Part shown: piece after piece, positions 27,319 to 42,625 of the stretch
How positions within the stretch are numbered: the first letter of the stretch is position 1
Layout: every line of letters starts with the position of its first letter
Assembly (NCBI GenBank): GCA_964370935.1
Contig: CAYJKI010000002.1
Location: 522,545-586,544, forward strand
Direction of reading: 5' to 3'
Source of the DNA: an uncultured Ignavibacteria bacterium
GTDB taxonomy: Bacteria > Zixibacteria > MSB-5A5 > CAIYYT01
DNA: 64,000 bases
Notes under the pieces: generated by a model
Seen by the model: only the letters and a program-made list of their open reading frames with translations
Told to the model about the DNA's origin: nothing
Database searches by the model: none
Program-made: the position numbers and the translations under genes

Positions 27319-28629
27319 CTACGCCACGGAGAGCGTAACGTCCTTGGTTGGGACGGCAACCAAACGATCACCGTCAAGGCTCGTTAGATCAACCGAGCAG
27401 ATTTGATTCTGTAGATTTCGTTCGGACTTCAAGTGAACCCGCATGTAGTTTTCCGTATACCCGGTCCAATAGTAATCTTCCTGCGTTTCAAATAGCACAT
27501 TGACAGTCGTGCCAAGATGCGCGGAGTAATATGCCCGACGTTTGCGCTCGGAGAGCTCAATTAAATTGCGAGTGCGTGCCTTCTTGACTTGATGTGGTAC
27601 TTTGGGTTTCAGATTCCATGAGGGCGTACCCGGACGATCGGAATAGGTGAACACGTGGAAATAGAAAAAGGGGAGATCTGTCAGAACGTCGCGAGTATTT
27701 TGAAATTCGGCCTCGCCCTCGGTGGGATAACCGACCATGATATCTGTACCGAGCCCTATGTCGGGAATCAATTTGGCGGACCACTCAATGAACTTGGCGA
27801 ACGGTTTGATGGTATGTTTGCGCGACATCGAAGAGAGAATCTTGTCATCTCCGCTTTGCAGTGGCACGTGCAAGTAGTGGCACAACTTAGCCGACGAGGC
27901 CATATAGCGCACCAATTCCGCCCCGATAGTGGTCGGTTCGATTGAACTGATGCGGATGCGCGACAGGCCTTCAATCAGCTCGAGACGCTCGATGACTTTG
28001 AGCAGGTTTTTTCCGTCATTCTTGTAGGTGCCAATGTTAACACCGGTGAGGACGAGTTCGCGGTGTCCGGCAGCGACCAGAGCTTCGGCTTCGCGAATAA
28101 TGTCGTTGAAATTCCGGCTGCGAGCACGGCCTCGGACTGTTGGGATAATGCAGAACGAGCAAAAATAATTGCAGCCATCCTGGATTTTCAGGTTAGCTCG
28201 TGTATTGAACGTGTACAGGCCGCTGGTGTCAATGGTGAATTCTTTCTCGGGCAACTTCGGCGAGTGGATTATTTGCGGCGCGGAGTTCTTATTGAGACCA
28301 TTGAGAAAGTCGCCTACACGCAGCTTGTGTTCATTGCCAATGATCAGATCGACGCCGCGAATGGCGCTGATGGCATCGATGCCGTTTTGCGCGTAACAGC
28401 CGACGACTGCAACGAAGGTCGTAGGATTGACACGCAGCGCTGCCCGCACCGCCTGTCGGCATTTGGAATCGGCTTGTTCGGTAACAGTGCAGGTGTTAAT
28501 AACCGTCACATCTGCAGGCTCGCCGAATTCGACGATATCGAATCCGCGGGCAGCCAGACTGTTGGCAATAATCGCGGTCTCGGCCTGATTGAGCCGACAA
28601 CCGAGTGTATGCAGCGAAGCCTTGGGCAA
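27319..28629 (-). CDS. mtaB: MiaB-family radical-SAM methylthiotransferase (MtaB-like tRNA t6A37 methylthiotransferase)
   Basis: UPF0004 domain (LHTLGCRLNQAE). Radical SAM CNYFCSFCIIP. C-terminal TRAM domain. The track ORF extends to 28815, but the homologous region begins about 28629 (TTG) with ...KASLHTLGC. Confidence 0.8.
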   Translation of the reverse strand: MPKASLHTLGCRLNQAETAIIANSLAARGFDIVEFGEPADVTVINTCTVTEQADSKCRQAVRAALRVNPTTFVAVVGCYAQNGIDAISAIRGVDLIIGNEHKLRVGDFLNGLNKNSAPQIIHSPKLPEKEFTIDTSGLYTFNTRANLKIQDGCNYFCSFCIIPTVRGRARSRNFNDIIREAEALVAAGHRELVLTGVNIGTYKNDGKNLLKVIERLELIEGLSRIRISSIEPTTIGAELVRYMASSAKLCHYLHVPLQSGDDKILSSMSRKHTIKPFAKFIEWSAKLIPDIGLGTDIMVGYPTEGEAEFQNTRDVLTDLPFFYFHVFTYSDRPGTPSWNLKPKVPHQVKKARTRNLIELSERKRRAYYSAHLGTTVNVLFETQEDYYWTGYTENYMRVHLKSERNLQNQICSVDLTSLDGDRLVAVPTKDVTLSVA

Positions 28630-28736
28630 GTTCCTGCTCCAGAAATGATCCGTTTTGACGCCGAATTGCCGGCGCCGCTGACAGGGAGCAGAATATAGAC
28701 TCGAGCGAGGAATGTCAAGCGGGAGACAGGCTGAAC

Positions 28737-29042
28737 TTATGTCCTGTGAGGTTTGAAGGCAAACTCGCGGATACTCATCGACTCGGGCACCGGATAGACT
28801 CCAGCGCCGGCGCAAAGCGGGCAGGGGCTCTTGTCGGACTGGCGAATTTCGATCATGCCGGATCCTTTACAGGCGTAACAGTCCTTTCCGGAAGCATCCT
28901 GCCCCTTGCCAAAGCAGTACATGCAGACGTGGGCATGATTCGGTGTCAAGCAGCGGTTGTCAACCCAGCCACGCCCGAGGCATTCCGGACAGGTTTTCGG
29001 CGGCCCTTCACTTGACGGTGGTAGGTGCTTCTCGGTTGACAT
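28737..29042 (-). CDS. Small DnaJ-type zinc-finger protein with four CxxCxGxG repeats and no J domain
   Basis: CPECLGRG, CMYCFGKG, CYACKGSG and CPLCAGAG are the four DnaJ central-domain repeats. The ORF overlaps the 3' end of the hydrogenase maturation protease gene. Confidence 0.5.
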   Translation of the reverse strand: MSTEKHLPPSSEGPPKTCPECLGRGWVDNRCLTPNHAHVCMYCFGKGQDASGKDCYACKGSGMIEIRQSDKSPCPLCAGAGVYPVPESMSIREFAFKPHRT

Positions 29043-29523
29043 AAATTTCCTTTCCAGTATGCAATTCAAGCCATTGATTGATACTCACCAGCGCCGGTTC
29101 GACAGCGGACCTCACCTGTCCCGTCATAGATTCATTCAGAGTAGTCACATCAGCGACTTCGACAGCTAACACATCAATATGTTCCGGCATTTGATATCCG
29201 AGCCGGCGCCCCAACTCCAAGGCGGTCGGGAGACTCATCTGATGGCTGGTGGTGAGATTTCGCGATGGTGTCAGAGTCCCCATGGGGAAGAAGTGCAGAG
29301 TACCGGGTGGTACTCCACCGGTCACTATGCTATCAATAAGAAGGACTTTGTCTCTCCCGTTGAGCAAATCCAGAAGGCCGAATCCGGCAACCGGAGCGAA
29401 AATCACTTCGACATGCTCGCAATCCCGCTGCCTTGTGTTCAGTATTCCGGCGATCGTCGGGCCGAACGCGTCATCCGACAAGACTTCGTTGCCGAGACAA
29501 AGTATCAAGAATGGCTTCAACAT
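29008..29523 (-). CDS. [NiFe]-hydrogenase maturation endopeptidase (HycI/HoxW family)
   Basis: MLKPFLILCLGNEVLSDDAFGPTIAGIL matches the N-terminal signature of hydrogenase maturation proteases. The track ORF extends to 29625. The start was chosen at the M preceding LKPFLILCLGN. Confidence 0.75.
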   Translation of the reverse strand: MLKPFLILCLGNEVLSDDAFGPTIAGILNTRQRDCEHVEVIFAPVAGFGLLDLLNGRDKVLLIDSIVTGGVPPGTLHFFPMGTLTPSRNLTTSHQMSLPTALELGRRLGYQMPEHIDVLAVEVADVTTLNESMTGQVRSAVEPALVSINQWLELHTGKEIYVNREAPTTVK

Positions 29524-31001
29524 TGCCTTTTGACGACCTCGACAACTTCTCCGCTTTCCGCAGAATGAATGACAATTTCGAGCGGCATTTCGCCGGGAAG
29601 CGAATGAGTAGCGCAACCAAAACACGGATCGTACGCACGGAACGCCATCTCGATTCGATTGAGAATGCCGTCGGTGATTGTCGTGCCTTTCTTAATCAAC
29701 CCTTCAGCGGCGCGTTTGATCGACATCGTGATCGGCGCGTTGTTGTTAGTCGTACCGACAATGAGATTTGCCTCGGTGACGATTCCGTTCTGATCGGTTT
29801 TGTAGTGATGCGTCAAGGTTCCGCGCGGCGCCTCGACAATGCCGACACCTTCTCCGACAATGCCAGTCGGTGGTTCGAGGATATGATCGGAAGTGATCTC
29901 GTCATCCTTGGCCTGCTCGAGCGTGGCCTCGCAGGCGAACATCAACTCAACCACACGCGCCCAGTGTGTTGCCAGCGTGGAATTGACCGGTGTCTTGCCG
30001 GTTCGATCTCCGGTGAGCGTTTCGAAATAGCGTTCGTACTCGGCGTGCGCAAGCGGCGTCGCCATACCGTCGGCTACGTTGAGCCTTGCCAGAGGGGTCG
30101 CTTTGTAAACGCCGGAGTCCATACCATCGACGAAACCTTTCCAGCCGACTTTTTTGAGATAAGGATACTTGAGATATGAATAGGGTTCGACGCGCTCTTC
30201 AACATACTGAAGATAATCCTTCGGTTCGTACTTGGCGTGTTCCGTACCATCAGGAGCTGTTACTCGCACTTTGCCGTCATAGAAGGTGACGTGGTTGTTG
30301 GCATCGACCAATCCCATATTATAGGTCTGATGGGCGTAGGAATCGGAGAGAATCATCTCCAGATAGGCTTTATTCGCAAGCACGATATCATTCAATACCT
30401 GAATGGTGAACTTGGCGAATTCGACCATGTCTTCGCCGATCTTGATGATCTCCTGCTGCTCTTCCTTGGTCACGCGCTTGCTCATTCCGCCCGGTAATGC
30501 AGTCACGGGGTGAACTTTCTTCCCACCGATGATCTCGATCACACGTTGACCGCGGGCGCGTTGTGCAATGACCTTCTTGCCGGCATCTAGTCCGACCTTG
30601 GCGATTACGCCGAGAATGTTGCGTTCGGCTTTGGGAGCATCGGGACCGCAAACGAAGTCTGGTCCACCGAGGGCATAGAAGTGAGTTGTGTGGTCACCGG
30701 CATAGAACGCGTTGTAGACTAACTCGCGCAATTTGCGCGCTGCCGACGGAATAGTAACACCATACACAGCATCGGCGGCTTTGGCAGACGCCATGTGATG
30801 CGCGTCGGGACACACGCCGCAGATACGGGTGGTAATGCGCGCCAATTCTTCTACCGGGCGTCCCTGGCAGAATTTTTCGAAGCCGCGCAATTCGGGTACC
30901 TGAAAGTAACAGTTGGCTAATTCACCATCGTCGTTGATGAATAAGTGAATCTTGCCGTGCCCTTCAAGGCGCGTAATCGGATCTATGACAATGCTCTTCA
31001 T
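29517..31001 (-). CDS. mvhA: [NiFe]-hydrogenase large subunit, group 3 (MvhA-like)
   Basis: N-terminal RLEGHG...RICGVC and C-terminal DPCFGCATH Ni-Fe ligand motifs. The size (494 aa) and the MvhD/MvhG neighbours indicate group 3. Confidence 0.9.
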   Translation of the reverse strand: MKSIVIDPITRLEGHGKIHLFINDDGELANCYFQVPELRGFEKFCQGRPVEELARITTRICGVCPDAHHMASAKAADAVYGVTIPSAARKLRELVYNAFYAGDHTTHFYALGGPDFVCGPDAPKAERNILGVIAKVGLDAGKKVIAQRARGQRVIEIIGGKKVHPVTALPGGMSKRVTKEEQQEIIKIGEDMVEFAKFTIQVLNDIVLANKAYLEMILSDSYAHQTYNMGLVDANNHVTFYDGKVRVTAPDGTEHAKYEPKDYLQYVEERVEPYSYLKYPYLKKVGWKGFVDGMDSGVYKATPLARLNVADGMATPLAHAEYERYFETLTGDRTGKTPVNSTLATHWARVVELMFACEATLEQAKDDEITSDHILEPPTGIVGEGVGIVEAPRGTLTHHYKTDQNGIVTEANLIVGTTNNNAPITMSIKRAAEGLIKKGTTITDGILNRIEMAFRAYDPCFGCATHSLPGEMPLEIVIHSAESGEVVEVVKRQC

Positions 31002-31969
31002 ACTTGCACCCTCCGAAGCAGAGAACCGGCCATGCTAAAGCGATAGAATGTTCCAAGTGGATCGGGAATGGTGTTGATGATCTGTTCAATCTCCTCTGGA
31101 TCGGTGGAATCGATCACGCTGGCCAATGCCGAGACCATTTTGGCTCCCTGGTCTTTGATGTTTGACGGGAGTCCATAGCAGCCACGGCACGGCATTCCAG
31201 CCTTAACGCATTTGGCTCCGCACCCGGAACGCGTCGCCGGCCCGAGGCAGACGATGCCCTGCTCCATGAGACAGAGATTCGGATCAGTGACCTTGGCAAA
31301 CGGCCTGGAGAAGGCTTTAATCTTTTTGATATTGCGTTCGCGCGGGCACTCGTCACAACAGCTCTTATCGGTTGCTCCAAGAACGGTTCCCTTGGGAGGC
31401 AGCGGCTTGTTGTTCTGGAGGATGTCGATAACGGCCATAACTGCATTCACGATTTGATCTGACTGGGGCGGGCAGCCGGGAATGTAATAATCAACCTCAA
31501 CTACCTGGTCTAGTGAGCGAACCGTATTCCAGAATTTCGGAATTGTGATGGTTCCTTCTGGAACTTGAACTTCCGGCTGGGGCTCGACACTGCCGCCATT
31601 AGCGAGAGAAGGCGACTTATGATAAACGTAATCGAGAATCGAATCTTTGTTGAAGAAGTTAGCCAACGCTGGAATGCACCCTTCGCCGGCACAACTGCCA
31701 AACGCTACCAGCACCACTGATTTCTGGCGCAGTAGTTCGGCGAGCTCATAATTCTCGCTTGTCCGGATCGCCCCGTTAAACAGTGTTAGAGTAATTGACT
31801 TGTCATCCATTGCGCGGACATCGTCGTACTTGATATCCATCGCGCAGGGCCAGAAGACGAGATCAAAGAAATCTACCACGGCGAGAATCTTTTCCTCGAT
31901 ATCGAGAATCGAAATATCACAGCCGCCGCAGGAGGAAGCCCAATATATCGCAAGTTTCGGTTTAGACAT
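30998..31969 (-). CDS. mvhG: [NiFe]-hydrogenase small subunit, group 3 (MvhG-like)
   Basis: MSKPKLAIYWASSCGGCDISILD (proximal cluster), GSCAGEGCIP, and distal CCDECPRE/CLGPATRSGCGAKC motifs. Confidence 0.85.
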   Translation of the reverse strand: MSKPKLAIYWASSCGGCDISILDIEEKILAVVDFFDLVFWPCAMDIKYDDVRAMDDKSITLTLFNGAIRTSENYELAELLRQKSVVLVAFGSCAGEGCIPALANFFNKDSILDYVYHKSPSLANGGSVEPQPEVQVPEGTITIPKFWNTVRSLDQVVEVDYYIPGCPPQSDQIVNAVMAVIDILQNNKPLPPKGTVLGATDKSCCDECPRERNIKKIKAFSRPFAKVTDPNLCLMEQGIVCLGPATRSGCGAKCVKAGMPCRGCYGLPSNIKDQGAKMVSALASVIDSTDPEEIEQIINTIPDPLGTFYRFSMAGSLLRRVQV

Positions 31970-32411
31970 GTTGATGCACCTCCTCGGCATTGGGGTCGAA
32001 ATCGTAGTCGTGCAATTTCAAAGGTCCCAAGGCGCGAATCTGTTCGGTGAACTCGGTGATGACCTCCTGGAAACGGCCGCCTTCGGAAGCCGAAACCCAT
32101 TCGAGGCGCATGCGGTTGCGATCGATTCCCAATTGTTGAAGTAACAATTGCGTCAGGGGCATTCGGCGCATGCACTTGTAGTTCCCTTCGATGTAATGAC
32201 AATCGCCGGGATGACAGCCGCAAACCAACACGCCATCGGCGCCGCGCCGGAAGGCATCGAGGATAAACGCCGGATCGACGCGCCCGGAACACATCACACG
32301 GATGCTGGTCACATTGGGCGGATAGTGCATGCGTGCAGTACCGGCGAGGTCGGCGCCGGTATAACTACACCAGTTGCAGAGGAAGCCGACAATTCTCGGT
32401 TCAAAACTCAT
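31962..32411 (-). CDS. mvhD: MvhD-like hydrogenase iron-sulfur subunit (Hdr-Mvh electron-transfer adaptor)
   Basis: IVGFLCNWCSYTGADLAG...CSGRVDPAFILDAFRRGADGVLVCGCHPGDCHY is the MvhD/FlxD signature. Confidence 0.85.
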   Translation of the reverse strand: MSFEPRIVGFLCNWCSYTGADLAGTARMHYPPNVTSIRVMCSGRVDPAFILDAFRRGADGVLVCGCHPGDCHYIEGNYKCMRRMPLTQLLLQQLGIDRNRMRLEWVSASEGGRFQEVITEFTEQIRALGPLKLHDYDFDPNAEEVHQHV

Positions 32412-34168
32412 GACAAAATCCCCTCAATCTGCGCATAGATTTGTTCGTCAGTGAAGTGGCGGCCCTTGATCGCACCCGAAGGACAAGCCGCGACGCAGGT
32501 GCCGCAAGCCTTACACAGTGCGGAATTGACGTGGCTGATCTTCTTTTCGGGATCAAAGTCGATCGCATGATATGGACACATGTCATTACAGATTTTGCAT
32601 CCGGAGCAAAGCTCGTCCTGGACCTCGGCGTAGGTTGCATCCATCAGGACTTCGCGTTGGCACAAGAGCCTCATTACCTGTGCGGCAGCCGCCGAACCTT
32701 GTGCGACAGAGTCAGGAATGTCCTTTGCACCCTGACAGACTCCGGCGAGGAAGATTCCCTCGGTTGACGTTGATACCGGCGCCAGCTTGGGATGCGATTC
32801 GATAAACCAGCCATCGGCACCGACGGAGATATTGAAACGGCGGGCAACCTCCTTGGCATCAACTCGTGCTTCAAGAGCGGTGCAGAGGACAATCATGTCG
32901 ACTGGCACTTCGCGATACTTGCCGATCATTGTGTCTTCGCAGCGGACAATCAGGGCGCCTTCGGCTTTTTGTGATTGACTGGCCGGGGCAACTTCGGCGC
33001 CTTTACCGCGGATGACATTGCCGCCTTCATCGAGAATTCGCTGGTAGAATTCTTCGTAGCCCTTTCCGAACGAGCGCATGTCGATGTAGAACTGATAGAC
33101 ATCAGCCTTGGTTTTCTCCATGATCAAGTGCGAGAACTTGAGGGCGTACATGCAGCAAACGCGGCTGCAGTATTTGTGGTGGTTTTCGTCGCGACTACCG
33201 ATGCAGTGGATGATTGCGATCCGGCGCGGTTCTTCGCCATTCTCCAAACAGATCTTTCCACCGGTCGGGCCGGCGGCATTGTTCATTTTCTCAAACTCGA
33301 TTGAGGAAACAACGTTGGGATAGTGGCCATAACCATACTGCTTCATTGGCGTGGGATCGAAATCGTCAAAGCCGGTTGCCAGCACAACGGCGCCGACTTC
33401 AATTTCCTCGAAATCTGCGCGATCGCCGTAGTCGATACAGCCCTTGGGGCACACCTTCTCGCAAATCATACACCCGCCAGTCTTGTAGTGTATGCAATTC
33501 TCGCGCACGATATAGGGTACGTTGGGGACTGCCTGTCGGAAAGGCAATGTAATTGCGGAGTTGGGTCCCAAGTTCAGTTCGCGGTGATTGATGACCCGCT
33601 CTTCAATATCCTCCATTTTAATATGGCCGGTCGGGCAGTATTTGGCGCAGGCGCCGCAGAGAATGCAGGCCTCGGAATCCAGGTTGAACGGAGTTGAGAC
33701 ATCGCGTTCCCGGCCACGATTGACAAAGGTCAGAGCGTGAGCACCGACGACCTCGTCGCAGATACGCACACAGAGTCCGCAGAGAATGCAAGTGTAGGTT
33801 CCATGTCCCCAGCGAGGCTCCTTGACACCGAACTTCGCTGCATAATGCTCCAGCAAGGGGACCGGGGCGCAGTTGGCCATCAACATTTCAAGGTTTGTGC
33901 GGCGTGCATTAACCACTCGCGGAGTTTCGGTGAAAATTTCCAGACCGTCCCAAGCCGGGTAATTGCAGGCCGTTACGATCTTGCTCCAGCCCTTGTTGTT
34001 GCGAGCCTCCACGACACAGATTCGGCAAGCAGCATACGGGCTCATAAATGGGTAGTAGCAGAGAGTCGGGATCTCGATTCCCAACGACTGTGCAGCGCCC
34101 AGGACGTACGAGCCCTCTTCGACCTCGATCGCTTGACCGTCTATTTTAATCTTAACAGTTGCCATCAT
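32408..34168 (-). CDS. Fusion protein: a NuoG/HoxU-like N-terminal module (2Fe-2S plus two [4Fe-4S] motifs) joined to the C-terminal half of HdrA (remainder of the inserted ferredoxin, FAD-domain second half with CSRVCC, C-terminal 2x[4Fe-4S] ferredoxin)
   Basis: N-terminus KIKIDGQAIEVEEGSYVLGAAQSLGIEIPTLCYYP...CRIC (2Fe-2S), CILCGLCVRICDE, CILCGACAKYCP. This is followed by LNLGPNSAITLPFRQAVP, IAIIHCIGSRDENHHKYCSRVCCMYALK, and CSGCKICNDMCP...CKACGTCVAACP, all collinear with methanogen HdrA from about residue 235 onward. Confidence 0.8.
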   Translation of the reverse strand: MMATVKIKIDGQAIEVEEGSYVLGAAQSLGIEIPTLCYYPFMSPYAACRICVVEARNNKGWSKIVTACNYPAWDGLEIFTETPRVVNARRTNLEMLMANCAPVPLLEHYAAKFGVKEPRWGHGTYTCILCGLCVRICDEVVGAHALTFVNRGRERDVSTPFNLDSEACILCGACAKYCPTGHIKMEDIEERVINHRELNLGPNSAITLPFRQAVPNVPYIVRENCIHYKTGGCMICEKVCPKGCIDYGDRADFEEIEVGAVVLATGFDDFDPTPMKQYGYGHYPNVVSSIEFEKMNNAAGPTGGKICLENGEEPRRIAIIHCIGSRDENHHKYCSRVCCMYALKFSHLIMEKTKADVYQFYIDMRSFGKGYEEFYQRILDEGGNVIRGKGAEVAPASQSQKAEGALIVRCEDTMIGKYREVPVDMIVLCTALEARVDAKEVARRFNISVGADGWFIESHPKLAPVSTSTEGIFLAGVCQGAKDIPDSVAQGSAAAAQVMRLLCQREVLMDATYAEVQDELCSGCKICNDMCPYHAIDFDPEKKISHVNSALCKACGTCVAACPSGAIKGRHFTDEQIYAQIEGILS

Positions 34169-34174
34169 AGTCTC

Positions 34175-36193
34175 CTATGCCACGGTCGCCGGCTGTTTTG
34201 CGGTTTCCTTGGGCTGCCAAAGTTCGCGGGCTTTCAGTTGGATCTTGTCGCCTTCGCCGCGCTTGACTCGCTTGATCGAGTTGTAGCGACAGATCTGGTA
34301 ACAAGCTCCACATTGAATGCACTTGTCCTGGATGATCATGTGCAGGCGTTTGGGTTCGCCGACGATAGCGTTAGTCGGGCAGGGTTTGACACAGGCGTGA
34401 CAGCCAGTGCAGGTATTGTCGATGGCGTGCGCCACAAGTTCCTTGCAGACACCGGCTGGGCAGCGTTTGTCACGAACGTGCGCGATGTATTCCTGGCGGA
34501 AGTAACGAATCGTGGAAAGCACCGGATTCGGAGCTGAACCGCCGAGCTGACACAAGCTGGTGTCGATAATAACCTGCGACAGCTCCTCGAGGTACTCGAT
34601 GTCCTCCATCGTGCCTTTGCCTTCGCAGATTTTGTTAAGAATGTTCAGCATCACGACAATGCCTTCACGACAGGGTACGCACTTGCCGCACGACTCCTCC
34701 TGGAGGAATTTCAGGAAGTACCGTGCGACATCGACCATGCAGGAATCTTCATCCATCACGATCATGCCACCCGATCCCATCATCGAACCGGCTTTGGTGA
34801 GTTCATCGAAGTCCACAGGCAAATCGAGCAGGCTGACCGGTTCATCTTCCTCGCGAATGTCGCCATGAGCAACCATACTGGCATGAACGGAGGTTTCGGA
34901 AGTCTCGACAATCAAGGTACCGCCTGACGGGCCACCGGTTTGCACGGCTTTGAAGCGTTTCTTGTTTGGGACTCCGCCGCCGATGTCATAGAGAATCTCG
35001 CGCAGGGTAATCCCCATTGGGACCTCGACCAATCCGGTGTTGTTGATTTTGCCGGTGAGAGCAAATACCTTGGTACCTTTGGAGTTGGCGGTTCCAATCC
35101 CGGCAAAATACTCGGCGCCTTTTTCAATGATGACCGGAATGTTAGCCCACGTTTCAACATTGTTCAGATTCGAGGGCTTTTCCCAGAGACCGGCTTCCAC
35201 CGTGTGGATATATTTGGCTCGCGGTTCACCGACCTTCCCTTCAAGCGAGGCCATCAAGGCAGTTGATTCGCCGCAGACAAATGCGCCACCGCCGCGGGAA
35301 ATCTCAATCTCGAAGTTGAATCCGGTCCCGAGAATATTCTGCCCGATTAGACCATACTCGCGCGCCTGATTCATCGCAATTGTCAGGTTCTTGACCGCCA
35401 ATGGATATTCGTTGCGAACATAAACGAATCCATCATTACTGCCGATGGCGAAAGCGCCGATAACCATCCCTTCAATCACCATGTGGGGATTGCCTTCGAG
35501 CAGAGAACGATCCATGAAGGCTCCGGGGTCGCCCTCGTCAGCGTTACAGATGACGTATTTCGGTTCGCCTTTGGCATTGCGGCATGATTCCCATTTTCTG
35601 CCGGCTGGATATCCACCACCGCCTCGACCGCGCAATCCGGACCGTTTGACCTCATCGATTATTTGCGTCGGCATCATTTGAGTCAGCGCTTTCACCATCG
35701 CCTGATAACCGCCGAGGAGGATGTAGTCGTTGATCGAGGTCGGGTCCATATAACCGTTCCTGCCGAAAATCAGACGCATCTGCTTTTTGTAAAACGGTAT
35801 GTCTTTTTCCAGTTTAATGACCTGCTGCGATTGCGGATCGCGATAGAGCAGTTTATTCACCAGATGACCGCCCTTGATTGTCTGTTCCCAGATCAACTTG
35901 GCGTCCGCAGGGCGGACTTTCTGATAGAAGATTCCTTGTGGCTGGACGACAACCAGCGGACCACGTTCACAGAATCCGTGACAACCTGTGGTCTTGATTT
36001 CAACTTCATTCTCCAGATGGTCATTAACGATTTCTTCCCGGAAGACCTTGGTAACCGCTTCGCAGCCACAGGCCAGGCAGCCGGTTCCGGCACAAACGGT
36101 CAGCACCGTTTTATTGGCGTTGCGATTGTTCTTGATTTGCTCGCGCAACTTGGCCAAATCCTGTGGCGACTTTATTCTGTTTTCTTTCATCAC
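34175..36193 (-). CDS. NuoF/HoxF/HndC-like NAD(P)H-binding flavoprotein (51-kDa type) with an N-terminal thioredoxin-like [2Fe-2S] domain and C-terminal 2x[4Fe-4S]
   Basis: GRGGGGYPAGRKWE (FMN/NADH site), ESCGKCVPCREG (N3 cluster), C-terminal CTGCHACVKPCP and CIQCGACYQICR, N-terminal CAGTGCLACGC...CHGFCERGP. Confidence 0.85.
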   Translation of the reverse strand: MMKENRIKSPQDLAKLREQIKNNRNANKTVLTVCAGTGCLACGCEAVTKVFREEIVNDHLENEVEIKTTGCHGFCERGPLVVVQPQGIFYQKVRPADAKLIWEQTIKGGHLVNKLLYRDPQSQQVIKLEKDIPFYKKQMRLIFGRNGYMDPTSINDYILLGGYQAMVKALTQMMPTQIIDEVKRSGLRGRGGGGYPAGRKWESCRNAKGEPKYVICNADEGDPGAFMDRSLLEGNPHMVIEGMVIGAFAIGSNDGFVYVRNEYPLAVKNLTIAMNQAREYGLIGQNILGTGFNFEIEISRGGGAFVCGESTALMASLEGKVGEPRAKYIHTVEAGLWEKPSNLNNVETWANIPVIIEKGAEYFAGIGTANSKGTKVFALTGKINNTGLVEVPMGITLREILYDIGGGVPNKKRFKAVQTGGPSGGTLIVETSETSVHASMVAHGDIREEDEPVSLLDLPVDFDELTKAGSMMGSGGMIVMDEDSCMVDVARYFLKFLQEESCGKCVPCREGIVVMLNILNKICEGKGTMEDIEYLEELSQVIIDTSLCQLGGSAPNPVLSTIRYFRQEYIAHVRDKRCPAGVCKELVAHAIDNTCTGCHACVKPCPTNAIVGEPKRLHMIIQDKCIQCGACYQICRYNSIKRVKRGEGDKIQLKARELWQPKETAKQPATVA

Positions 36194-36711
36194 TTCGCCT
36201 CCTCGGATTTGTGAACCTTGCCCGCGCGCACATCGTTAAGCATCGTTTCCGTCTTGGTGACTGTCATGTTGCCATAGTAAACCTCATTGGCGGTCACGAG
36301 CGGTCCGAGCGCGCACGCACCGAGGCAGTTTACGGTTTCGAGGCTGATCTCACCGTCCGGCGTCGTTTCTCCGGGCTTGATCTTGAGGTCGCGCTCCAGT
36401 TTGTCAACGATTACGGTCGCTTGCCGAACGTGGCAGGCGGTGCCGGTACAAACACAGATGTGATTCTTACCTTTCGGTTTCAGGCTGAAGGTGCGATAGA
36501 ACGTCGCTACACCGTATATCTGCGCCAGCGGCAGTTTCATCGTTTTGGAGACAGCGCGCATGGCTGACTCCGGCAGGTAGCGATAGTGCTTCTGAATGTC
36601 CTGGAGGATCATGATGAGCGCCGATGCCTTGGCGCCGTACTCGGCCACAATTTGGTCGATGGCTTCTTGAACATCATACTCTTCTTGCGGAGTCGCGGGT
36701 AATGTCGTCAT
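36190..36711 (-). CDS. NuoE/HoxE-like thioredoxin-fold [2Fe-2S] subunit (24-kDa type)
   Basis: CVCTGTACHVRQ...CLGACALGP is the NuoE cluster motif. The gene has 4-nt overlaps with both neighbours. Confidence 0.85.
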   Translation of the reverse strand: MTTLPATPQEEYDVQEAIDQIVAEYGAKASALIMILQDIQKHYRYLPESAMRAVSKTMKLPLAQIYGVATFYRTFSLKPKGKNHICVCTGTACHVRQATVIVDKLERDLKIKPGETTPDGEISLETVNCLGACALGPLVTANEVYYGNMTVTKTETMLNDVRAGKVHKSEEAK

Positions 36712-37673
36712 GATTGTTTCACCTCCGCAGGCAGCAGATCTTTTTCAGGCATGGGTTGAGCCGCTGTGAGAACTGTTAAATCGTGCTTTGGCCCCATTCG
36801 CCATTTGTCCTGAACGTCGAGAAGCCGCCCTTCGCGGTAGACACGATCTCCAAGCATCATGCGACGACGGGTCGGTGTCGGCACGCTGGGACAGGCTTCG
36901 TAGCAGGCGCCGCAGCTGTTGCACTTTGTGGTATCCACGTAACGGGGTTTCTTCTTCAGTTTGACCGTGAAATTCCCCAAATACCCCGAGACTTCCTCAA
37001 CTTCTGTCCAAGTCAAAAGACGAATGTTGGGATGTTTCCCGACCGCAACCATTTTCGGAGTTAGAATACAAGCGGCGCAGTCGAGCGTTGGAAACGTCTT
37101 GTCAAATTGCGCCATGTGACCGCCAATCGTGGTTTCCTTTTCGACAAGGATAACCTTGAAGCCGGCATCGGCAATTTGCAGAGCTGCTTCAATTCCGGCA
37201 ATACCGCCGCCGACAATTAGAACCTGCTGTTTGATTGGGACGCGGCGCATGTCGAGCGGTTCATGAAGCCTGACTCTGGCAACCGCCGCTCGCACCAGTG
37301 AGACCGCCTTGGCCGTCGCAGCTTTGGGATCAAGAGTCACCCAGCTTACCTGCTCGCGAATATTCGCCATTTCAAAAAGATAGCGATTGAGTTGAGCGCG
37401 TTCGCACGCGTTGCGAAATGTCGGTTCATGCATCAGCGGGCTGCAGGCAGCGACCACAACGCGATTGAGTTTAGATTCGCGAATGTCCTTCTGAATCAGT
37501 TCCTGTCCCGGTTCCGAACACATGAATTTGTATTGTCTGGCGACCACCACATTAGGAAGCGCGGCGGCGACCTCGACGACCTTACTTACATCGACCATTT
37601 TGGCGATGTTGTTTCCGCAATGACAGACATAGACGCCGATGCGGATTTCAGAGCCATTTTGCGACTGGTTCAT
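36708..37673 (-). CDS. hdrA: HdrA N-terminal fragment (N-terminal Cys-cluster domain, first half of the FAD-binding domain, first [4Fe-4S] motif of the inserted ferredoxin) ending in a ~50-aa unrelated tail
   Basis: IGVYVCHCGNNIAKMVDV...RVVVAACSPLMHEPTFRNAC...YLFEMANIREQ. VLIVGGGIAGIEAALQIADAGFKVILVEKETTIGGHMAQFDKTFPTLDCAACIL. KPRYVDTTKCNSCGACYEACP. Its stop overlaps the nuoE-like start. Confidence 0.8.
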   Translation of the reverse strand: MNQSQNGSEIRIGVYVCHCGNNIAKMVDVSKVVEVAAALPNVVVARQYKFMCSEPGQELIQKDIRESKLNRVVVAACSPLMHEPTFRNACERAQLNRYLFEMANIREQVSWVTLDPKAATAKAVSLVRAAVARVRLHEPLDMRRVPIKQQVLIVGGGIAGIEAALQIADAGFKVILVEKETTIGGHMAQFDKTFPTLDCAACILTPKMVAVGKHPNIRLLTWTEVEEVSGYLGNFTVKLKKKPRYVDTTKCNSCGACYEACPSVPTPTRRRMMLGDRVYREGRLLDVQDKWRMGPKHDLTVLTAAQPMPEKDLLPAEVKQS

Positions 37674-38554
37674 ACTGCCACCACGCCTTTCATCGCCATA
37701 AGCTTGCTGGGTTCGATGAGCAGTTTATCGAGTCCAAGCTCCTCGGGCGACAGTCCAAGTGCAATTCCGACCAAATGCGTGAAGTATATGACGGGTATGT
37801 TAAAGTCAGTCGAGTACTGCGAATTGACTTTGCCCTGGAAGCCTTCAAGGTTCACGTGGCATAGAGGGCAGGCAGTGGCGATCATCTCACCACCGTTCTC
37901 TGCCGCGGCCTGCAGAAGTTCATGACAGAGCTTCAGCGCAATCTGCTCATCGGTGGTCATTAGCATTCCACCGCAGCAGCGTACTTTGGGCGGGTAGGGA
38001 ACCGACTCGGCGCCGAGGGCGCGGATCAAATTGTCCATCGTTTGCGGATCATCCTTGTCATCGAAGTAGCCGACTGGCCGGACAATCTGACAACCGTAGT
38101 ATGGAGCGACCTTGAGTCCGGTCAGTGGCTGCGTAACCTTTGTCTTGAGCACGTCGATTCCGACATCATTGACGATGATGTCAAGCGGATGACGAACGTT
38201 GACTGGCTTGGTATACGACATCCCCGCAGCGGCGAGGGCTTCATTGATCTTCTTGCCTTCTTTGGGATCCCAGGCGATGTGTCGATTCGTCTTGCGAAGT
38301 ATCGTGTAGCAACTACTGCACGGGGCGCAGATTTCGAGTCCCATCTCCTGCGCCAACGCCAGATTTCGCGCACTGATCGAGTAGCCGACGATCTTCTTGG
38401 CGGACATGTACATTGTGGCGCCGCAACAGTTCCAATCCTCGATTTCACGGAGCCCGATTCCAAGCGATTTGAACACAGCGCGCGTCGACTTGTCGTAAGG
38501 GCTGGCCGTATGCTCAAGGCTGCAGCCGGGGTAGTAAGCAAATTCTAGCATCAC
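37670..38554 (-). CDS. hdrB: Heterodisulfide-reductase subunit B-like protein (two CCG domains)
   Basis: WNCCGA... and RCCGGMLM CCG-domain motifs, plus conserved Cys spacing of HdrB/HdrD. Confidence 0.85.
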   Translation of the reverse strand: MMLEFAYYPGCSLEHTASPYDKSTRAVFKSLGIGLREIEDWNCCGATMYMSAKKIVGYSISARNLALAQEMGLEICAPCSSCYTILRKTNRHIAWDPKEGKKINEALAAAGMSYTKPVNVRHPLDIIVNDVGIDVLKTKVTQPLTGLKVAPYYGCQIVRPVGYFDDKDDPQTMDNLIRALGAESVPYPPKVRCCGGMLMTTDEQIALKLCHELLQAAAENGGEMIATACPLCHVNLEGFQGKVNSQYSTDFNIPVIYFTHLVGIALGLSPEELGLDKLLIEPSKLMAMKGVVAV

Positions 38555-39138
38555 TGTTCTCCAAACTCGTTAGCTTTTTTGATAATGGCCTGGATTTGAT
38601 TGACGCGTTTAATGCGTTTCGGGAGTAGTCCCATTCTGCCCCGCCGGATCATTGCCATCCCGTAACCGGCTGTCGTGAATAATTTCACAATGTGTGAGCG
38701 CATAAAGTACTTTATACCGAGACCGAGTTCATAATTGCGCCCGTACCTGTAGACATTATTCATGAATGTCGAGGAGAGGCTATGGACCGGAAAGTTGGCT
38801 GGGTAGATCTTTCTGTGCATCGCAATTCGCTTCAGCGCATACATGGTATCGGTGACCTTGATTCCAGCAGGACACCTGACCGTGCAAGCGTAGCATGAAG
38901 CGCAGATCCAGATCGTCTTGCTGCGAAGGATGTCCTCCAGGCGGCCAGCTCTGAACATCGCGATGGTTTGGCGGGGCGTGATGTCCATAAACTGCGAAAC
39001 CGGGCAGGTTCCCGTGCAGGTTCCGCACTGAAGGCACTTCTTGATCTTGTGTCCGTCGGGAAAAGAGTCGATTTGCTCCCAAAAGGCGGCATGCAATTCG
39101 GCCTCTGTGGGCGAAGTGGTCTTGATTGCTTCAGTCAT
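38551..39138 (-). CDS. hdrC: Heterodisulfide-reductase subunit C-like 2x[4Fe-4S] ferredoxin
   Basis: CLQCGTCTGTCP and CASCYACTVRCP. First gene of the operon. Confidence 0.85.
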   Translation of the reverse strand: MTEAIKTTSPTEAELHAAFWEQIDSFPDGHKIKKCLQCGTCTGTCPVSQFMDITPRQTIAMFRAGRLEDILRSKTIWICASCYACTVRCPAGIKVTDTMYALKRIAMHRKIYPANFPVHSLSSTFMNNVYRYGRNYELGLGIKYFMRSHIVKLFTTAGYGMAMIRRGRMGLLPKRIKRVNQIQAIIKKANEFGEQ

Positions 39139-39392
39139 AAGACCTCAAAGAGATATAAGTACTCGAATTCGGAAGGAAACACCGACTTAGAATACCAGTC
39201 GCGTCAACAGGATGGCATCGTGACGCAAATCCCATTGTCGATGTCGCTATCTATGATGGAAATAATCAGCTTTTCGGGCAAGTGTCAAGAGAAATATTTC
39301 ACAAAGTCATACTGTAATATGAAACAAAGAATAGCTTCGTTGTGGTGGAATCCGCCCTTTAAAAACCAATCAAGTTGGGCCGCTTTTAATGG

Positions 39393-39983
39393 TTAACGGC
39401 CGATCAGATGGAGAAATTCCGCTCTTGTAGCCGGGTCTTCATGCAATTCGCCAAGCATCGCTGATGTCACCATTACTGAATTCTGCTTTTCTACGCCACG
39501 CATCATCATGCAAAGGTGTTGTGCTTCTATGACAACTCCAACTCCGATAGCTCCGGTGTGGATTTGAATCGTATTAGCGATCTGACGTGTTAGATTCTCC
39601 TGAATCTGAAGCCGGCGGCCAAAGACATCAACAACTCTTGCGACTTTTGAGAGGCCAAGCACCTTTCCATCGGGTATATACCCGACGTGACACTTCCCGA
39701 AGAATGGCAATAGATGGTGCTCACACATTGAGTAGAGCTCGATGTTTTTTACGACCACAAGTTCCTTCGTATCTGACTCAAATAACGCATCGTTAATGAT
39801 TGCGCCGATGTCCTCGCTATATCCTTTCATTAGGAATTCGAATGCCTTGGCGGCGCGGGCGGGAGTTCTTCGAAGACCCTCACGGTTGGGATCTTCACCA
39901 ATGTGGGTTATGAGATTGTGATAGAGTTCTTCAAGCCGCAAAGTCATTTTGTGCTCTCCTGAAAGTCGTGCGCCAATGTTCAA
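39393..39983 (-). CDS. folE: GTP cyclohydrolase I
   Basis: [19 protein letters not shown]...[10 protein letters not shown]...[14 protein letters not shown] motifs of FolE. Confidence 0.85.
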
Positions 39984-40786: not shown

Positions 40787-42625
40787 TTACTCGGCCAACA
40801 TCACAGAGATTCCCCAATATTGAGGATTCCTTGGTTTTGTGTCGTTCCAGTTTCCGAATGAATGAGATCCATCAGATACATAGTGAAGTCGATACGATCC
40901 GGCATCAAGGAAGATTTGAGTGTCAGCAATTCGGTTCTTATCCGCACCACCGGCAGCAGTGGTCTTGCGGTAGGTCATCTCCCAAACGACATCTCGAGTT
41001 TGGACATCCTCGATCCATCCGTAATCATACATTTCATTCCCGGATCCTTCACCCATGGCAATAATATGTACGCGAGTCGGCTTGCTGATGGTGAATGAAG
41101 TCGACTCCTCGGCGTCATCGCCAACACGGACTATTCTGGCAAGTACGTCCTTCGATTCCGCCTCTTCCTGCAATTCGGCGATAAGAGAGCGGTCGAATGA
41201 ATTGTTAACGGCGAAGAGGGTCACGCCGTAGTTTTTCTGATCGTATGGCGCCCCGGAATTCCATGCTCCATAAGCATGCGAGTCATCGGTAACATAGCCG
41301 AGAACATAATCGCCCTTTGGCAGGGTAACGACTTCATCAGCCAACCGATTCTTTTTCGCTCCGCCGGCCGGTTCGGTGTTGCGTTCCTGCATTAGCCAGA
41401 ATGGTCTCGAGTCACCAAGTCGTTCAATCCAGGCATAGTCGGCGAAATCACCGCTGCCGGTGCTATATTCGCCGAGAGCATAAACACGTACTTCGCAATC
41501 CTGCTTTACACGGAAAGGTTTGACTTCCATAAAATCATCGCCGGCACGAACAATGGATAGAAGTGCCAACTGCGACGAACTTTCGCGGAAGGTGGAAACA
41601 GAGGCTAAATCGGTCTTGGACAATGCAGAAACTCGAACGCCGTAAGCTTCGGGATTATAAGGTGGCGGGCAATTCCAATCATCATAGCTGTGCGAATCAT
41701 CAGTGACGTAATAAAGCAAGTAGTTGCCTTTGTCGAGCTGCAATGTGCGTCGCGCCATTTTGTTTTTCTCGCCGCCACCCGCCCAGCGCAGATGCTCGTC
41801 GGCCATTGACCATTCACGTTTGCGCGTATCGGCATTGATGATCCAGCCGTAATCGGCGTAAGAATCACTCCAGTCGGGGATTTCGCCAATGGCTTGAATT
41901 TCCACTTCCATTGGTTTGGCGAGTGAAAAGCCCACTGAAGTATATTGTTCATGATCCGGATGGAGGATTTCAGCGATGACCCGATCAGACGTGTAGGTGC
42001 AAGTGGCACTGCGAATGTCGCCGTTGTCCCCAGTGATCTCCAGCCGGTATTCGGCGAGCAGCTCCTCCATTTCGGCTGACCAATCGGAATCAACTGTGAC
42101 ATTCCAATTGTTGTCTTTAAGCTGCTTCTCCAATTCGGCCAGATCTTTGGTCTTGTTTCCCAACTCCTTTTTAACTTCCTCCAAAGCGGCTTTGAGCTGC
42201 TCCCAGTCGAGACTGAAGTTCACGTTGTTCCAGAAGTTTACCGGTCCCGCAAAGAAGTACACTTGATATTGGCCGGGCTCGAGTTCCAGATTCCGATCAT
42301 ATTCGCGAAGTCTATCGTCCTTGTTTGAAGGGTCGGTGTTCGTGTCATCCATAATCCAGACCGGCTCAAGCCCGCTGGCAGGAATGATCCAGGCATACGC
42401 GGCCATTTCGCGATCATTACCGGATGCGGCACCGACGGCGTTGATATGTATGGAGGAAGGTTTGTTGACTTCAAAAGCTTTGCAGTAGAGCTCACCTTTG
42501 CGGAAATCGCGCACCTTAACAATCTGGACATTCTCGGCTACAGCGGTTACCGCTAAGACAATTAGAACCAGCGCAACAGAGGCAGTGCCAACGGTGCCAA
42601 TTCGATTTTCCGGTTTAACTCTCAA
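40787..42625 (-). CDS. Secreted/membrane-anchored protein composed of four tandem ~140-aa repeats of an unknown domain
   Basis: N-terminal TM/signal segment. Four copies of the pattern [AD]Y[AG]WI...GG.KN+.A+..L..G.Y.L.YV.DDSH.Y..WN...PY......YGV (AYAWIIP.., DYGWIINAD.., DYAWIERLG.., DYGWIEDVQ..). Confidence 0.5.
   Translation of the reverse strand: MRVKPENRIGTVGTASVALVLIVLAVTAVAENVQIVKVRDFRKGELYCKAFEVNKPSSIHINAVGAASGNDREMAAYAWIIPASGLEPVWIMDDTNTDPSNKDDRLREYDRNLELEPGQYQVYFFAGPVNFWNNVNFSLDWEQLKAALEEVKKELGNKTKDLAELEKQLKDNNWNVTVDSDWSAEMEELLAEYRLEITGDNGDIRSATCTYTSDRVIAEILHPDHEQYTSVGFSLAKPMEVEIQAIGEIPDWSDSYADYGWIINADTRKREWSMADEHLRWAGGGEKNKMARRTLQLDKGNYLLYYVTDDSHSYDDWNCPPPYNPEAYGVRVSALSKTDLASVSTFRESSSQLALLSIVRAGDDFMEVKPFRVKQDCEVRVYALGEYSTGSGDFADYAWIERLGDSRPFWLMQERNTEPAGGAKKNRLADEVVTLPKGDYVLGYVTDDSHAYGAWNSGAPYDQKNYGVTLFAVNNSFDRSLIAELQEEAESKDVLARIVRVGDDAEESTSFTISKPTRVHIIAMGEGSGNEMYDYGWIEDVQTRDVVWEMTYRKTTAAGGADKNRIADTQIFLDAGSYRLHYVSDGSHSFGNWNDTKPRNPQYWGISVMLAE

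Follow-up and report, generated by a model that had tools for sequence, protein, structure and literature searches.

The 64-kb window analyzed here (the whole stretch of 64,000 nucleotides from contig CAYJKI010000002.1 of an uncultured Ignavibacteria bacterium) carries on its minus strand, between positions 39138 and 29008, an operon of ten tightly packed genes for heterodisulfide reductase (Hdr) and [NiFe] hydrogenase subunits, in which hdrA is divided into two genes that stand apart, with genes for a NuoE-like and a NuoF-like protein between them. The Pfam assignments agree with this gene content, and the features are listed in Table 1. ATGA overlaps of 4 nt were found at hdrC/hdrB, hdrB/hdrA_N, hdrA_N/nuoE, nuoE/nuoF, fusion/mvhD, and mvhG/mvhA; mvhD/mvhG (29 nt) and mvhA/protease overlap more extensively, and the nuoF stop lies 6 nt from the start of the fusion gene, which has GGAG upstream. 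The translational coupling of both hdrA fragments to their neighbors, proposed in a first-pass annotation made from the letters alone, is thus borne out, as are the open reading frames and coordinates that it gave for them. The hydrogenase has the features of group 3c (Mvh type), i.e., an MvhA-like large subunit with NiFe-binding CxxC pairs, together with MvhG and MvhD, adjoining the hdr genes; the best PDB match of the large subunit was 5odc_F (E 1e-115), followed by the large subunit of NiFe-Bfu, 7t2r_D (E 2e-108). The window proteins were mapped onto the 80 loci (L001-L080) returned by a locus survey with one genome per species, and the HycI-type protease, whose true start is probably internal, near 29523, was syntenic in L001, L005, L009, and L010.

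Table 1. Features of the split-hdrA operon (positions in the window; residues are those of the protein named)
Feature	Position	Strand	Length or residues	Assignment and profile matches
hdrC	38551..39138	(-)	195 aa	Operon gene 1, 2x[4Fe-4S] subunit; Pfam Fer4_8/Fer4_17; NCBIfam CoB_CoM_SS_C 77.8 bits, under cut-off; kept in synteny
hdrB	37670..38554	(-)	294 aa	Two CCG domains, the disulfide-reducing site; Pfam CCG x2, E 5e-27; NCBIfam CoB_CoM_SS_B 213.6 bits, under cut-off
hdrA_N	36708..37673	(-)	321 aa	N-terminal HdrA fragment
CNSCGACYEACP	36888..36923	(-)	HdrA_N residues 251-262	First CxxCxxCxxxCP motif of the inserted ferredoxin domain
HdrA_N tail	36711..36884	(-)	58 aa, residues 264-321	HdrA alignments end at residues 263-276
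NuoE/HydC/BfuC-like [2Fe-2S] subunit	36190..36711	(-)	173 aa	Pfam 2Fe-2S_thioredx, E 2e-51
NuoF/HydB/BfuB-like flavoprotein	34175..36193	(-)	672 aa	Pfam domains and PDB matches (see text)
BfuA-like::HdrA_C fusion	32408..34168	(-)	586 aa	
BfuA-like domain of fusion	33578..34168	(-)	Residues 1-197	Pfam Fer2_4 and Fer4
HdrA_C part of fusion	32408..33577	(-)	Residues 198-586	PDB HdrA 8rvv_A, E 7e-110
CIHYKTGGCMICEKVCP	33446..33496	(-)	Fusion residues 225-241	Second Cys motif of the inserted ferredoxin domain
mvhD	31962..32411	(-)	149 aa	[2Fe-2S] adaptor between hydrogenase and HdrA; Pfam FlpD, E 3e-56
[NiFe] hydrogenase small subunit, MvhG/VhuG-like	30998..31990	(-)	330 aa	Pfam Oxidored_q6; NCBIfam VhuG 208.5 bits, under cut-off
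[NiFe] hydrogenase large subunit, MvhA-like	29517..31001	(-)	494 aa	Motifs RICGVCPDAHH and DPCFGCATH
HycI-type maturation protease	29008..29625	(-)		Last operon gene; Pfam HycI, E 9e-9

The two fragments together account for a complete HdrA. Along the NCBIfam HdrA2 profile NF040770 (777 positions), HdrA_N covered positions 1-256, the fusion 258-640, and MvhD 647-774; the two HdrA fragments scored 389.6 and 426.3 bits, below the cut-off of 1100, and HdrA is here the product of two genes, not a single polypeptide. In agreement, residues 8 to about 263 of HdrA_N aligned with solved methanogen HdrA (8rvu_a residues 10-266, E 8e-104; 5odc_A, E 1e-101), and fusion residues 158-585 with HdrA residues 244-653. 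The split point falls between Cys motifs 1 and 2 of the inserted ferredoxin domain. The first-pass annotation had called this a clean and collinear fission, to be refuted if alignment showed that the fragments did not cover the HdrA fold between them; the profile and the PDB alignments confirmed the fission, and the fragments jointly and collinearly covered the fold. All the elements expected of the flavin adenine dinucleotide (FAD) domain were present, divided between the two chains: GGGIAGIE and TLDCAAC in HdrA_N, and the CSRVCC cluster (C322, C334, C338, and C339) with K344 in the fusion. The thioredoxin-reductase-like fold is therefore shared out over two polypeptides, as had been claimed. 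The ferredoxin elements were likewise all found, motif 1 in HdrA_N and motif 2 together with the C-terminal ferredoxin domain in the fusion, and the inserted ferredoxin domain can exist only in trans. The ligands of both half-domains, which had been reported as retained, were invariant across 14-27 orthologs with 41-91% identity.

HdrA_N contains the N-terminal cluster domain (residues 8-135, aligned to the Cys-ligated [4Fe-4S] domain, CHCG..C..C, of solved HdrA, with C17, C19, C52, and C77 invariant), the GGGIAGIE stretch as the GxGxxG motif of the first half of the FAD domain, the TFPTLDCAAC loop, and Cys motif 1. The four Cys of the CNSCGACYEACP motif were invariant in 26/26 orthologs whose sequence extends that far. 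The protein of a Chloroflexia metagenome-assembled genome (MAG), L024, was left out of this count, being cut in that alignment at an in-frame TGA (L024:3676-3678), and it too carries the first Cys motif when translated through this codon. The TGA stands at the second Cys of TLDCxxC, equivalent to Cys202 of the window HdrA_N, the frame goes on beyond it, and it is probably a selenocysteine codon in the split HdrA_N of this organism. Downstream of the HdrA-like part, HdrA_N ends in the tail of Table 1, which had been described as having no similarity to HdrA. The end of the HdrA alignments confirmed this, and to it we can add that the tail is itself conserved: it follows the pattern P-x-P-x2-R...LG...G..L...GP.HDLT.LT.AQP.PE, 15 of its residues are invariant (alignment A3), and tail-bearing relatives of HdrA_N form 120 protein clusters of 314-329 aa with 66-91% identity. 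In the AlphaFold2 (AF2) monomer, the tail had a predicted local distance difference test score (pLDDT) below 50, and it is presumed to be a docking element.

The fusion protein begins with a BfuA-like domain. Residues 5-199 aligned end to end with residues 5-200 of the 247-aa NuoG-like chain 9mqx_A (E 4e-32); from the chain descriptions and this length of 247 aa, we take 9MQX to be the BamGHI module of class II benzoyl-CoA reductase, and 9mqx_A, 9mqx_B, and 9mqx_C to be BamI, BamH, and BamG, respectively. The domain holds C37, C48, C51, and C68 as ligands of a [2Fe-2S] cluster and C127-C137 and C168-C178 as those of 2x[4Fe-4S]; all 12 of the 12 Cys are present and invariant, and the HxxxCxxC motif, i.e., the His-ligated cluster, is lacking. 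The NuoG-like 2Fe-2S start of the protein and its continuation as HdrA had both been recognized in the first-pass annotation, and both stood, but CILCGACAKYCP is the second motif of the BfuA-like 2x[4Fe-4S] domain, the same as in BamI, and does not belong to HdrA, its alignment with HdrA motif 1 being superficial. About 20 residues separate the last BfuA cluster motif from the start of the HdrA segment, in which the ferredoxin motif CIHYKTGGCMICEKVCP reads C225-x7-C233-x2-C236-x3-C240-P and aligned to CIE-----CMLCDEVC of solved HdrA. It presumably partners Cys motif 1 of HdrA_N. These four Cys, the CSRVCC ligands, and K344, the equivalent of Mt HdrA K409 (the Lys beside flavin N5), were invariant in alignments A1 and A2. 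The C-terminal ferredoxin domain occupies residues 514-570. At least 120 full-length relatives of the fusion (clusters at 90% identity) were found, with 64-100% identity, and a library-wide search with a 211-aa piece spanning the BfuA::HdrA_C junction gave about 15-20 distinct clusters at 50% identity in which this junction is present. Larger fusions exist as well, since three representatives with this junction (P0274, P0275, and P0301) have 1087-1218 aa.

A split FAD domain is unusual, and solely for this reason we considered that the locus could be an artefact or decaying, i.e., a chimera from assembly, a pseudogene with a frameshift, or a pair of HdrA remnants that have ceased to cooperate; nothing was found in support of this. 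At least 23 independently assembled contigs, falling in 39 index blocks, carry the exact HdrA_N protein, always beside the same neighboring proteins, and 11 of the 39 blocks hold contigs longer than 1 Mb. At least 30 species-level genomes, spread over more than 10 phyla, share the gene order. An assembly artefact could be excluded without reads, because the exact protein is on 23 contigs and the gene order repeats across phyla. The substitution rates between the window and L001, a locus of an Ignavibacteria MAG with 91% identity, also spoke against decay: the nonsynonymous rate (dN) was 0.04-0.09 in every operon gene, the synonymous rate (dS) of whole genes either exceeded 2.2 or could not be estimated because of saturation, that of the HdrA_N tail was 1.28, and dN/dS, where dS could be estimated, was 0.02-0.07 (0.026 for hdrA_N and 0.07 for the tail). 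The ratio below 0.07, together with invariant ligands and translationally coupled junctions, agrees with the earlier statement that this is not a decaying pseudogene. We regard artefact or decay as having practically no chance of being correct, and it is refuted as far as sequence data allow. Collectively, these data showed that the fission of hdrA is a conserved design under selection.

This locus is no one-off but a member of a widespread conserved family. The order hdrC-hdrB-hdrA_N-nuoE-nuoF-fusion-mvhD-mvhG-mvhA was found in L001-L030, L034, L040, and L046, a few of these split-type loci being cut by contig ends and those of Desulfobacterales lacking hydrogenase genes. The bacterial carriers belong to Ignavibacteria, Zixibacteria, GN15, Calditrichaeota, Bryobacterales and other Acidobacteriota, Armatimonadetes, Aminicenantes, Dehalococcoidia, Chloroflexia, Planctomycetes, Verrucomicrobiota, and Desulfobacterales, and the archaeal ones to Thermoplasmata. 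Among the surveyed loci, the identity of the fusion to the window protein went down to 41%. BfuA is fused to HdrA_C in every family member, and in L022, L025, L028, L034, and L040 the HdrA_N frame also runs on into the NuoE-like protein, so that the fused products have 420-450 aa; the hosts of this HdrA_N::NuoE/BfuC form (for example, L022:1394-2674) are Planctomycetes, Desulfobacterales, a Thermoplasmata archaeon, and an unclassified bacterium. Loci with an uninterrupted hdrA and the classical hdrCBA-mvhDGA order were found among L031-L080. A further form was encountered in L073:5577-9074, where a 1165-aa bacterial HdrA has a GltD/NfnB-like NAD(P)H module between the Cys motifs of the inserted ferredoxin domain; L061, L066, L074, and L079 also encode NfnB-inserted HdrA, the insertion site is the same as that of the window split, and no description of this type of insertion outside ANME-1 archaea was found in the accessible literature. 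In a neighbor-joining tree built on the C-part of HdrA (79 loci), the split forms interleaved with the NfnB-inserted and the intact ones, and NfnB-inserted loci adjoined split-type loci; the tree was poorly resolved, with some contig-truncated loci mislabeled, and supports no claim on a single or multiple origin.

Several relatives differ from the window in what accompanies the split unit. Many have extra operon genes, 1.5-3.9 kb in all, between hdrA_N and nuoE or between nuoF and the fusion (L010:1957-5331 and L022:4936-8020), which encode a HydS-like sensory [FeFe] hydrogenase (Fe_hyd_lg_C plus an FeS domain) and HATPase_c, PHP, DRTGG, and CBS proteins. Sets of HydS-type sensor and kinase/phosphatase genes are typical of hydABC operons, and the extra genes suggest H2-responsive regulation; none of these insert genes occurs in the window operon. 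In a deltaproteobacterial MAG (L021:91-17981), the split-HdrA/Bfu unit comes without any hydrogenase, and its neighbors are MetV-MetF, HdrA::MvhD, an FrhB-like protein, an HdrL-like protein of 1154 aa that contains a response-regulator receiver domain, and HdrCB; a similar hydrogenase-free layout was seen in L023 (Desulfococcaceae) and L028 (Desulfobacterales). As for the surroundings of the window operon, a promoter and terminator scan of 28600-39500 gave counts equal to the shuffled expectation, and the flanks encode CusABC-like efflux proteins, AsmA, M16 peptidases, and glycosyltransferases. A 612-aa open reading frame at 40787-42625 (-) has a signal-anchor-like N-terminus and about four internal repeats (…Y/DYGWI…W.M… DDSH.Y..WN…), and gave no Pfam match at E 1e-6 or better.

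The genes that separate the two parts of hdrA had been read as an NAD(P)H module, and NuoE- and NuoF-type genes are indeed there. The NuoF-like (F) subunit has an N-terminal Trx-like [2Fe-2S] domain, an FMN/NADH site, an SLBB domain, an N3-type [4Fe-4S] cluster, and C-terminal 2x[4Fe-4S] (Pfam 2Fe-2S_thioredx at residues 24-102, Complex1_51K, NADH_4Fe-4S, and two Fer4 at residues 592-641). Its best PDB match was 7t2r_B, subunit B of NiFe-HydABCSL (E 2e-230), followed by 9mqx_B (E 5e-225) and 8a6t_B, HydB (E 5e-222). The protein aligned with solved HydB chains in two stretches, which places an acidic insertion of about 50 aa at residues about 430-487, between the SLBB domain and the N3-cluster helix bundle. 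The NuoE-like (E) subunit matched the HydC chains 7p5h_C, 7t2r_C, and 8a6t_C best and 9mqx_C next. One could instead take these two subunits and the A domain of the fusion for a simple NAD(P)+-reducing diaphorase like HoxEFU, with no bifurcation; HdrA would merely hand its low-potential electrons to NAD+, and the enzyme would be an H2:NAD+/disulfide oxidoreductase in which ferredoxin has no role. NuoE, NuoF, and HoxU/NuoG-like domains are present, and the NCBIfam HoxE and HoxU models gave weak matches. However, both scores were under their cut-offs (HoxE 148.6 bits against 224 and HoxU 119.9 against 333), the F subunit has the extra domains of HydB/BfuB, and its E values against HydB and BamH chains ranged from 1e-213 to 2e-230 (about 1e-225 for the best), as compared with about 1e-100 against complex I NuoF. 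We therefore hold the diaphorase to be very unlikely.

From these matches, the inserted genes are best described as a HydCBA/Bfu bifurcating module that is closest to NiFe-HydABCSL and BamGHI. The module has the extra domains of BfuB, the NuoE-like [2Fe-2S] protein of BfuC, and the [2Fe-2S] and 2x[4Fe-4S] clusters of BfuA without the His-ligated one. Since that cluster is lacking, as in BamI, the A domain was placed in the type 2 BfuA class, which has A1 [2Fe-2S] and A2/A4 [4Fe-4S] clusters without the His-ligated A3 (Schut et al., PMC9304861). The supplementary text of the same paper contains no Hdr-linked class of Bfu.

HydA, HydB, and HydC form one complex; taken with the HdrA_N::NuoE fusions and the universal BfuA::HdrA_C fusion, HdrA_N, E, F, and the fusion protein would therefore belong to a single assembly. 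We think it fairly probable that the whole operon encodes one soluble multi-subunit enzyme, Mvh-Hdr-Bfu, in which H2 oxidation and disulfide reduction would drive the reduction of NAD+ and ferredoxin. As to its origin, a hydCBA-type (bfuCBA) cassette may have entered hdrA in frame between the Cys motifs of the ferredoxin domain, and this would have yielded HdrA_N (in some lineages HdrA_N::BfuC), BfuC, BfuB, and BfuA::HdrA_C. The new ends would lie in the inserted-ferredoxin loop, one leading into BfuC and the other coming out of BfuA. The two HdrA pieces are predicted to reassemble in trans and rebuild the FAD domain and the 2x[4Fe-4S] ferredoxin domain, because the FAD domain is incomplete in each of them and the ferredoxin fold requires the two motifs together. 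Three Cys of one motif and one Cys of the other bind each cluster of a 2x[4Fe-4S] ferredoxin, and both clusters of the inserted domain would here bridge two chains, ligated by Cys from each. AF2 monomers had a mean pLDDT of 59 for the fusion and 64.5 for HdrA_N; the confident parts were the BfuA domain (85-94 over residues 1-120 and 58-79 by residue 160) and the N-domain of HdrA (about 78-93), whereas the half FAD and ferredoxin parts mostly had 20-65 at equal alignment depth. This contrast between autonomous domains and half-folds lends the predicted reassembly weak support.

Low-potential electrons leave methanogen Hdr through the inserted ferredoxin domain (summarized in PMC9012536). The simplest placement of the Bfu module is at this exit of HdrA, in the position of ferredoxin, because only about 20 residues lie between the last BfuA cluster motif and the HdrA segment, and the rerouted electron path suggested in the first-pass annotation is, given this fusion topology, a reasonable inference. 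Electrons from H2 would pass through MvhAG and MvhD to the HdrA FAD. The high-potential electron would then leave through HdrC and HdrB to a disulfide, and the low-potential one through the trans-assembled ferredoxin domain to BfuA and on to BfuBC, where NAD+ and ferredoxin would be reduced; the latter electron would be handed straight to the Bfu module instead of to free ferredoxin. The two bifurcation stages would thus stand in series, which would permit the use of H2 at low partial pressure. By our own arithmetic, trace H2 at about -270 to -300 mV and a disulfide at about -140 mV put the low-potential arm at about -400 to -450 mV, the values for H2 at trace pressure being our own estimate and that for CoM-S-S-CoB as quoted in PMC9304861. 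Two stages in series would make energetic sense, because this arm is close to the mid-potential that Bfu needs for NAD+ and ferredoxin. Such a two-stage "voltage multiplier", in which the low-potential arm of the HdrA FAD serves as the mid-potential input of the flavin/FeS site of Bfu via the two-chain ferredoxin domain, is put forward as a tentative possibility.

Several points weigh against this scheme. The architecture, its conservation, the selection on it, the retained ligands, and the fusion links are shown by the sequences. The trans-assembly is predicted from homology and fusion logic, the wiring and, above all, the way in which the electrons flow and the disulfide that HdrBC reduces are inferred as well, and the covalent closeness of BfuA to half a ferredoxin domain is no proof that they are nearest redox neighbors in three dimensions. 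The flanks of the 64-kb window give no clue to the disulfide of HdrBC. The hydrogenase-free, MetFV-linked unit of Desulfobacterales indicates that other donors can be served, possibly in the reverse direction; the split-HdrA/Bfu unit is portable and could run either way. Moreover, the Bfu module of benzoyl-CoA reductase is an electron input that acts through an MvhD-like adaptor, not an output on the inserted ferredoxin domain (bioRxiv 10.64898/2026.04.10.717634).

This last precedent, since BamGHI does just that, also favors a reading with the opposite polarity, in which Bfu would be a confurcating input that feeds electrons from NADH and reduced ferredoxin into HdrA, with disulfide reduction at HdrBC and/or H2 evolution at MvhAG as outputs; the enzyme would then be fermentative and H2-evolving, or redox-balancing. 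The NuoF-like and MvhA proteins are close also to those of the reversible NiFe-HydABCSL, and the MetFV-linked version and the H2-sensor genes of the hydABC-operon kind embedded in related loci point the same way. Set against this, Bfu is fused at the low-potential port and not at the MvhD/C-terminal ferredoxin entry used in benzoyl-CoA reductase, all biochemically characterized group 3c hydrogenases oxidize H2 (PMC11216029), and plain H2 evolution needs no HdrBC, yet hdrBC is strictly conserved and under selection. We judge the confurcating input rather unlikely, and retain the H2-oxidizing Mvh-Hdr-Bfu enzyme as the preferred reading.

Flavin-based electron bifurcation underlies the energy conservation of anaerobes, and the HdrA and Bfu types have been treated as separate machines. 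In the full-text literature that we searched, there was no account of hdrA being split by a bfuCBA (nuoEF/hydCB) cassette, of two genes jointly rebuilding a ferredoxin or FAD domain, or of a Bfu module on the low-potential port of HdrA beside an Mvh hydrogenase; a prior description may exist, and the arrangement is widespread and has apparently gone unremarked. There is partial precedent in HdrA with NfnB inserted at the same site and in benzoyl-CoA reductase, which pairs Bfu with Hdr. The solid part is the observation itself, and its interest lies in the wiring and in the H2 metabolism of many uncultured anaerobes. If the series reading is true, many of these could use trace H2 to generate NADH along with reduced ferredoxin, or else a reductant of unusually low potential, and this would be the first known case of HdrA coupled in series into Bfu, with a polarity opposite to that of benzoyl-CoA reductase and a far wider distribution. 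The coupling partner would be a [NiFe] hydrogenase in Ignavibacteriota, Zixibacteria, Acidobacteriota, Planctomycetes, and others, and MetFV in Desulfobacterales. Annotation pipelines label the pieces 'HdrA', 'FAD-dependent oxidoreductase', or '4Fe-4S dicluster protein', and because of such generic names metabolic reconstructions miss the link of the hydrogenase to NAD(H). The locus is also a natural case of an FAD domain and a ferredoxin fold tolerating fission, and a testable target for how HdrA hands on low-potential electrons.

Compared with known systems, the operon is like the methanogen MvhAGD-HdrABC complex (H2:heterodisulfide/ferredoxin oxidoreductase; PDB 5ODC and 8RVU) in its six subunit types and its hdrCBA-mvhDGA order, with E values of 1e-101 to 1e-115 against the solved chains. 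Unlike that complex, it has HdrA as two polypeptides with BfuC, BfuB, and the BfuA domain between the halves, its presumed low-potential acceptor is a bound Bfu module and not free ferredoxin or polyferredoxin, and its host is a bacterium without known CoM-S-S-CoB. FlxABCD-HdrABC, the NADH-linked Hdr of Desulfovibrio on which Ramos and colleagues reportedly published in 2015, is said to combine an NADH module with HdrABC and an MvhD-like protein; Flx, unlike the module found here, is reportedly not related to NuoEF/Bfu and enters via the MvhD-like FlxD, with HdrA intact.

NiFe-HydABCSL (NiFe-Bfu) of Acetomicrobium mobile (PDB 7T2R; PMC8880783, PMC9304861) shares with the window a BfuBC core and a [NiFe] hydrogenase, and provides the best PDB match of the F subunit and the second-best of MvhA. 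It has neither Hdr subunits nor MvhD, and, in contrast to the window, its hydrogenase docks directly on BfuA. HdrA9-11 of ANME-1 have an NfnB/GltD-like insertion of roughly 500 aa in the inserted ferredoxin domain (PMC9012536). As in the window, the insertion lies between the same two Cys motifs, and the module works with NAD(P)H and may be bifurcating in its own right; the insertion is, however, one domain within one polypeptide, whereas the window has a three-gene cassette that causes fission and is of the Bfu and not the Nfn family.

The only described complex that unites HydBC/Bfu-type and HdrA-type modules is the class II benzoyl-CoA reductase Bam(BC)2DEFGHI of Geobacter metallireducens, and the coexistence of Bfu-type and Hdr-type modules in one complex was called previously unreported in that work (bioRxiv 10.64898/2026.04.10.717634). 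Like the window, it has an MvhD-like adaptor and an HdrBC-like subunit. Its output is a tungsten AOR-type reductase, without hydrogenase, and the window has a [NiFe] hydrogenase instead; neither an AOR-type gene nor a double-HdrA gene is among the ten genes of the operon, which is thus distinct from class II benzoyl-CoA reductase as marked by BamB, BamC, and the double-HdrA BamE. BamE is an unsplit fused double HdrA, whereas the window HdrA is split. For the three inserted parts, the chains that we took to be BamH, BamG, and BamI rank among the best PDB matches. Unlike the BfuA of the window, which is fused into the low-potential port, BamI stands free as a subunit of 247 aa on the input side and feeds the C-terminal ferredoxin domain and the MvhD-like BamF. 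Collectively, this comparison suggests that the window locus is a second, differently wired, and far more widely distributed combination of HdrA with Bfu.

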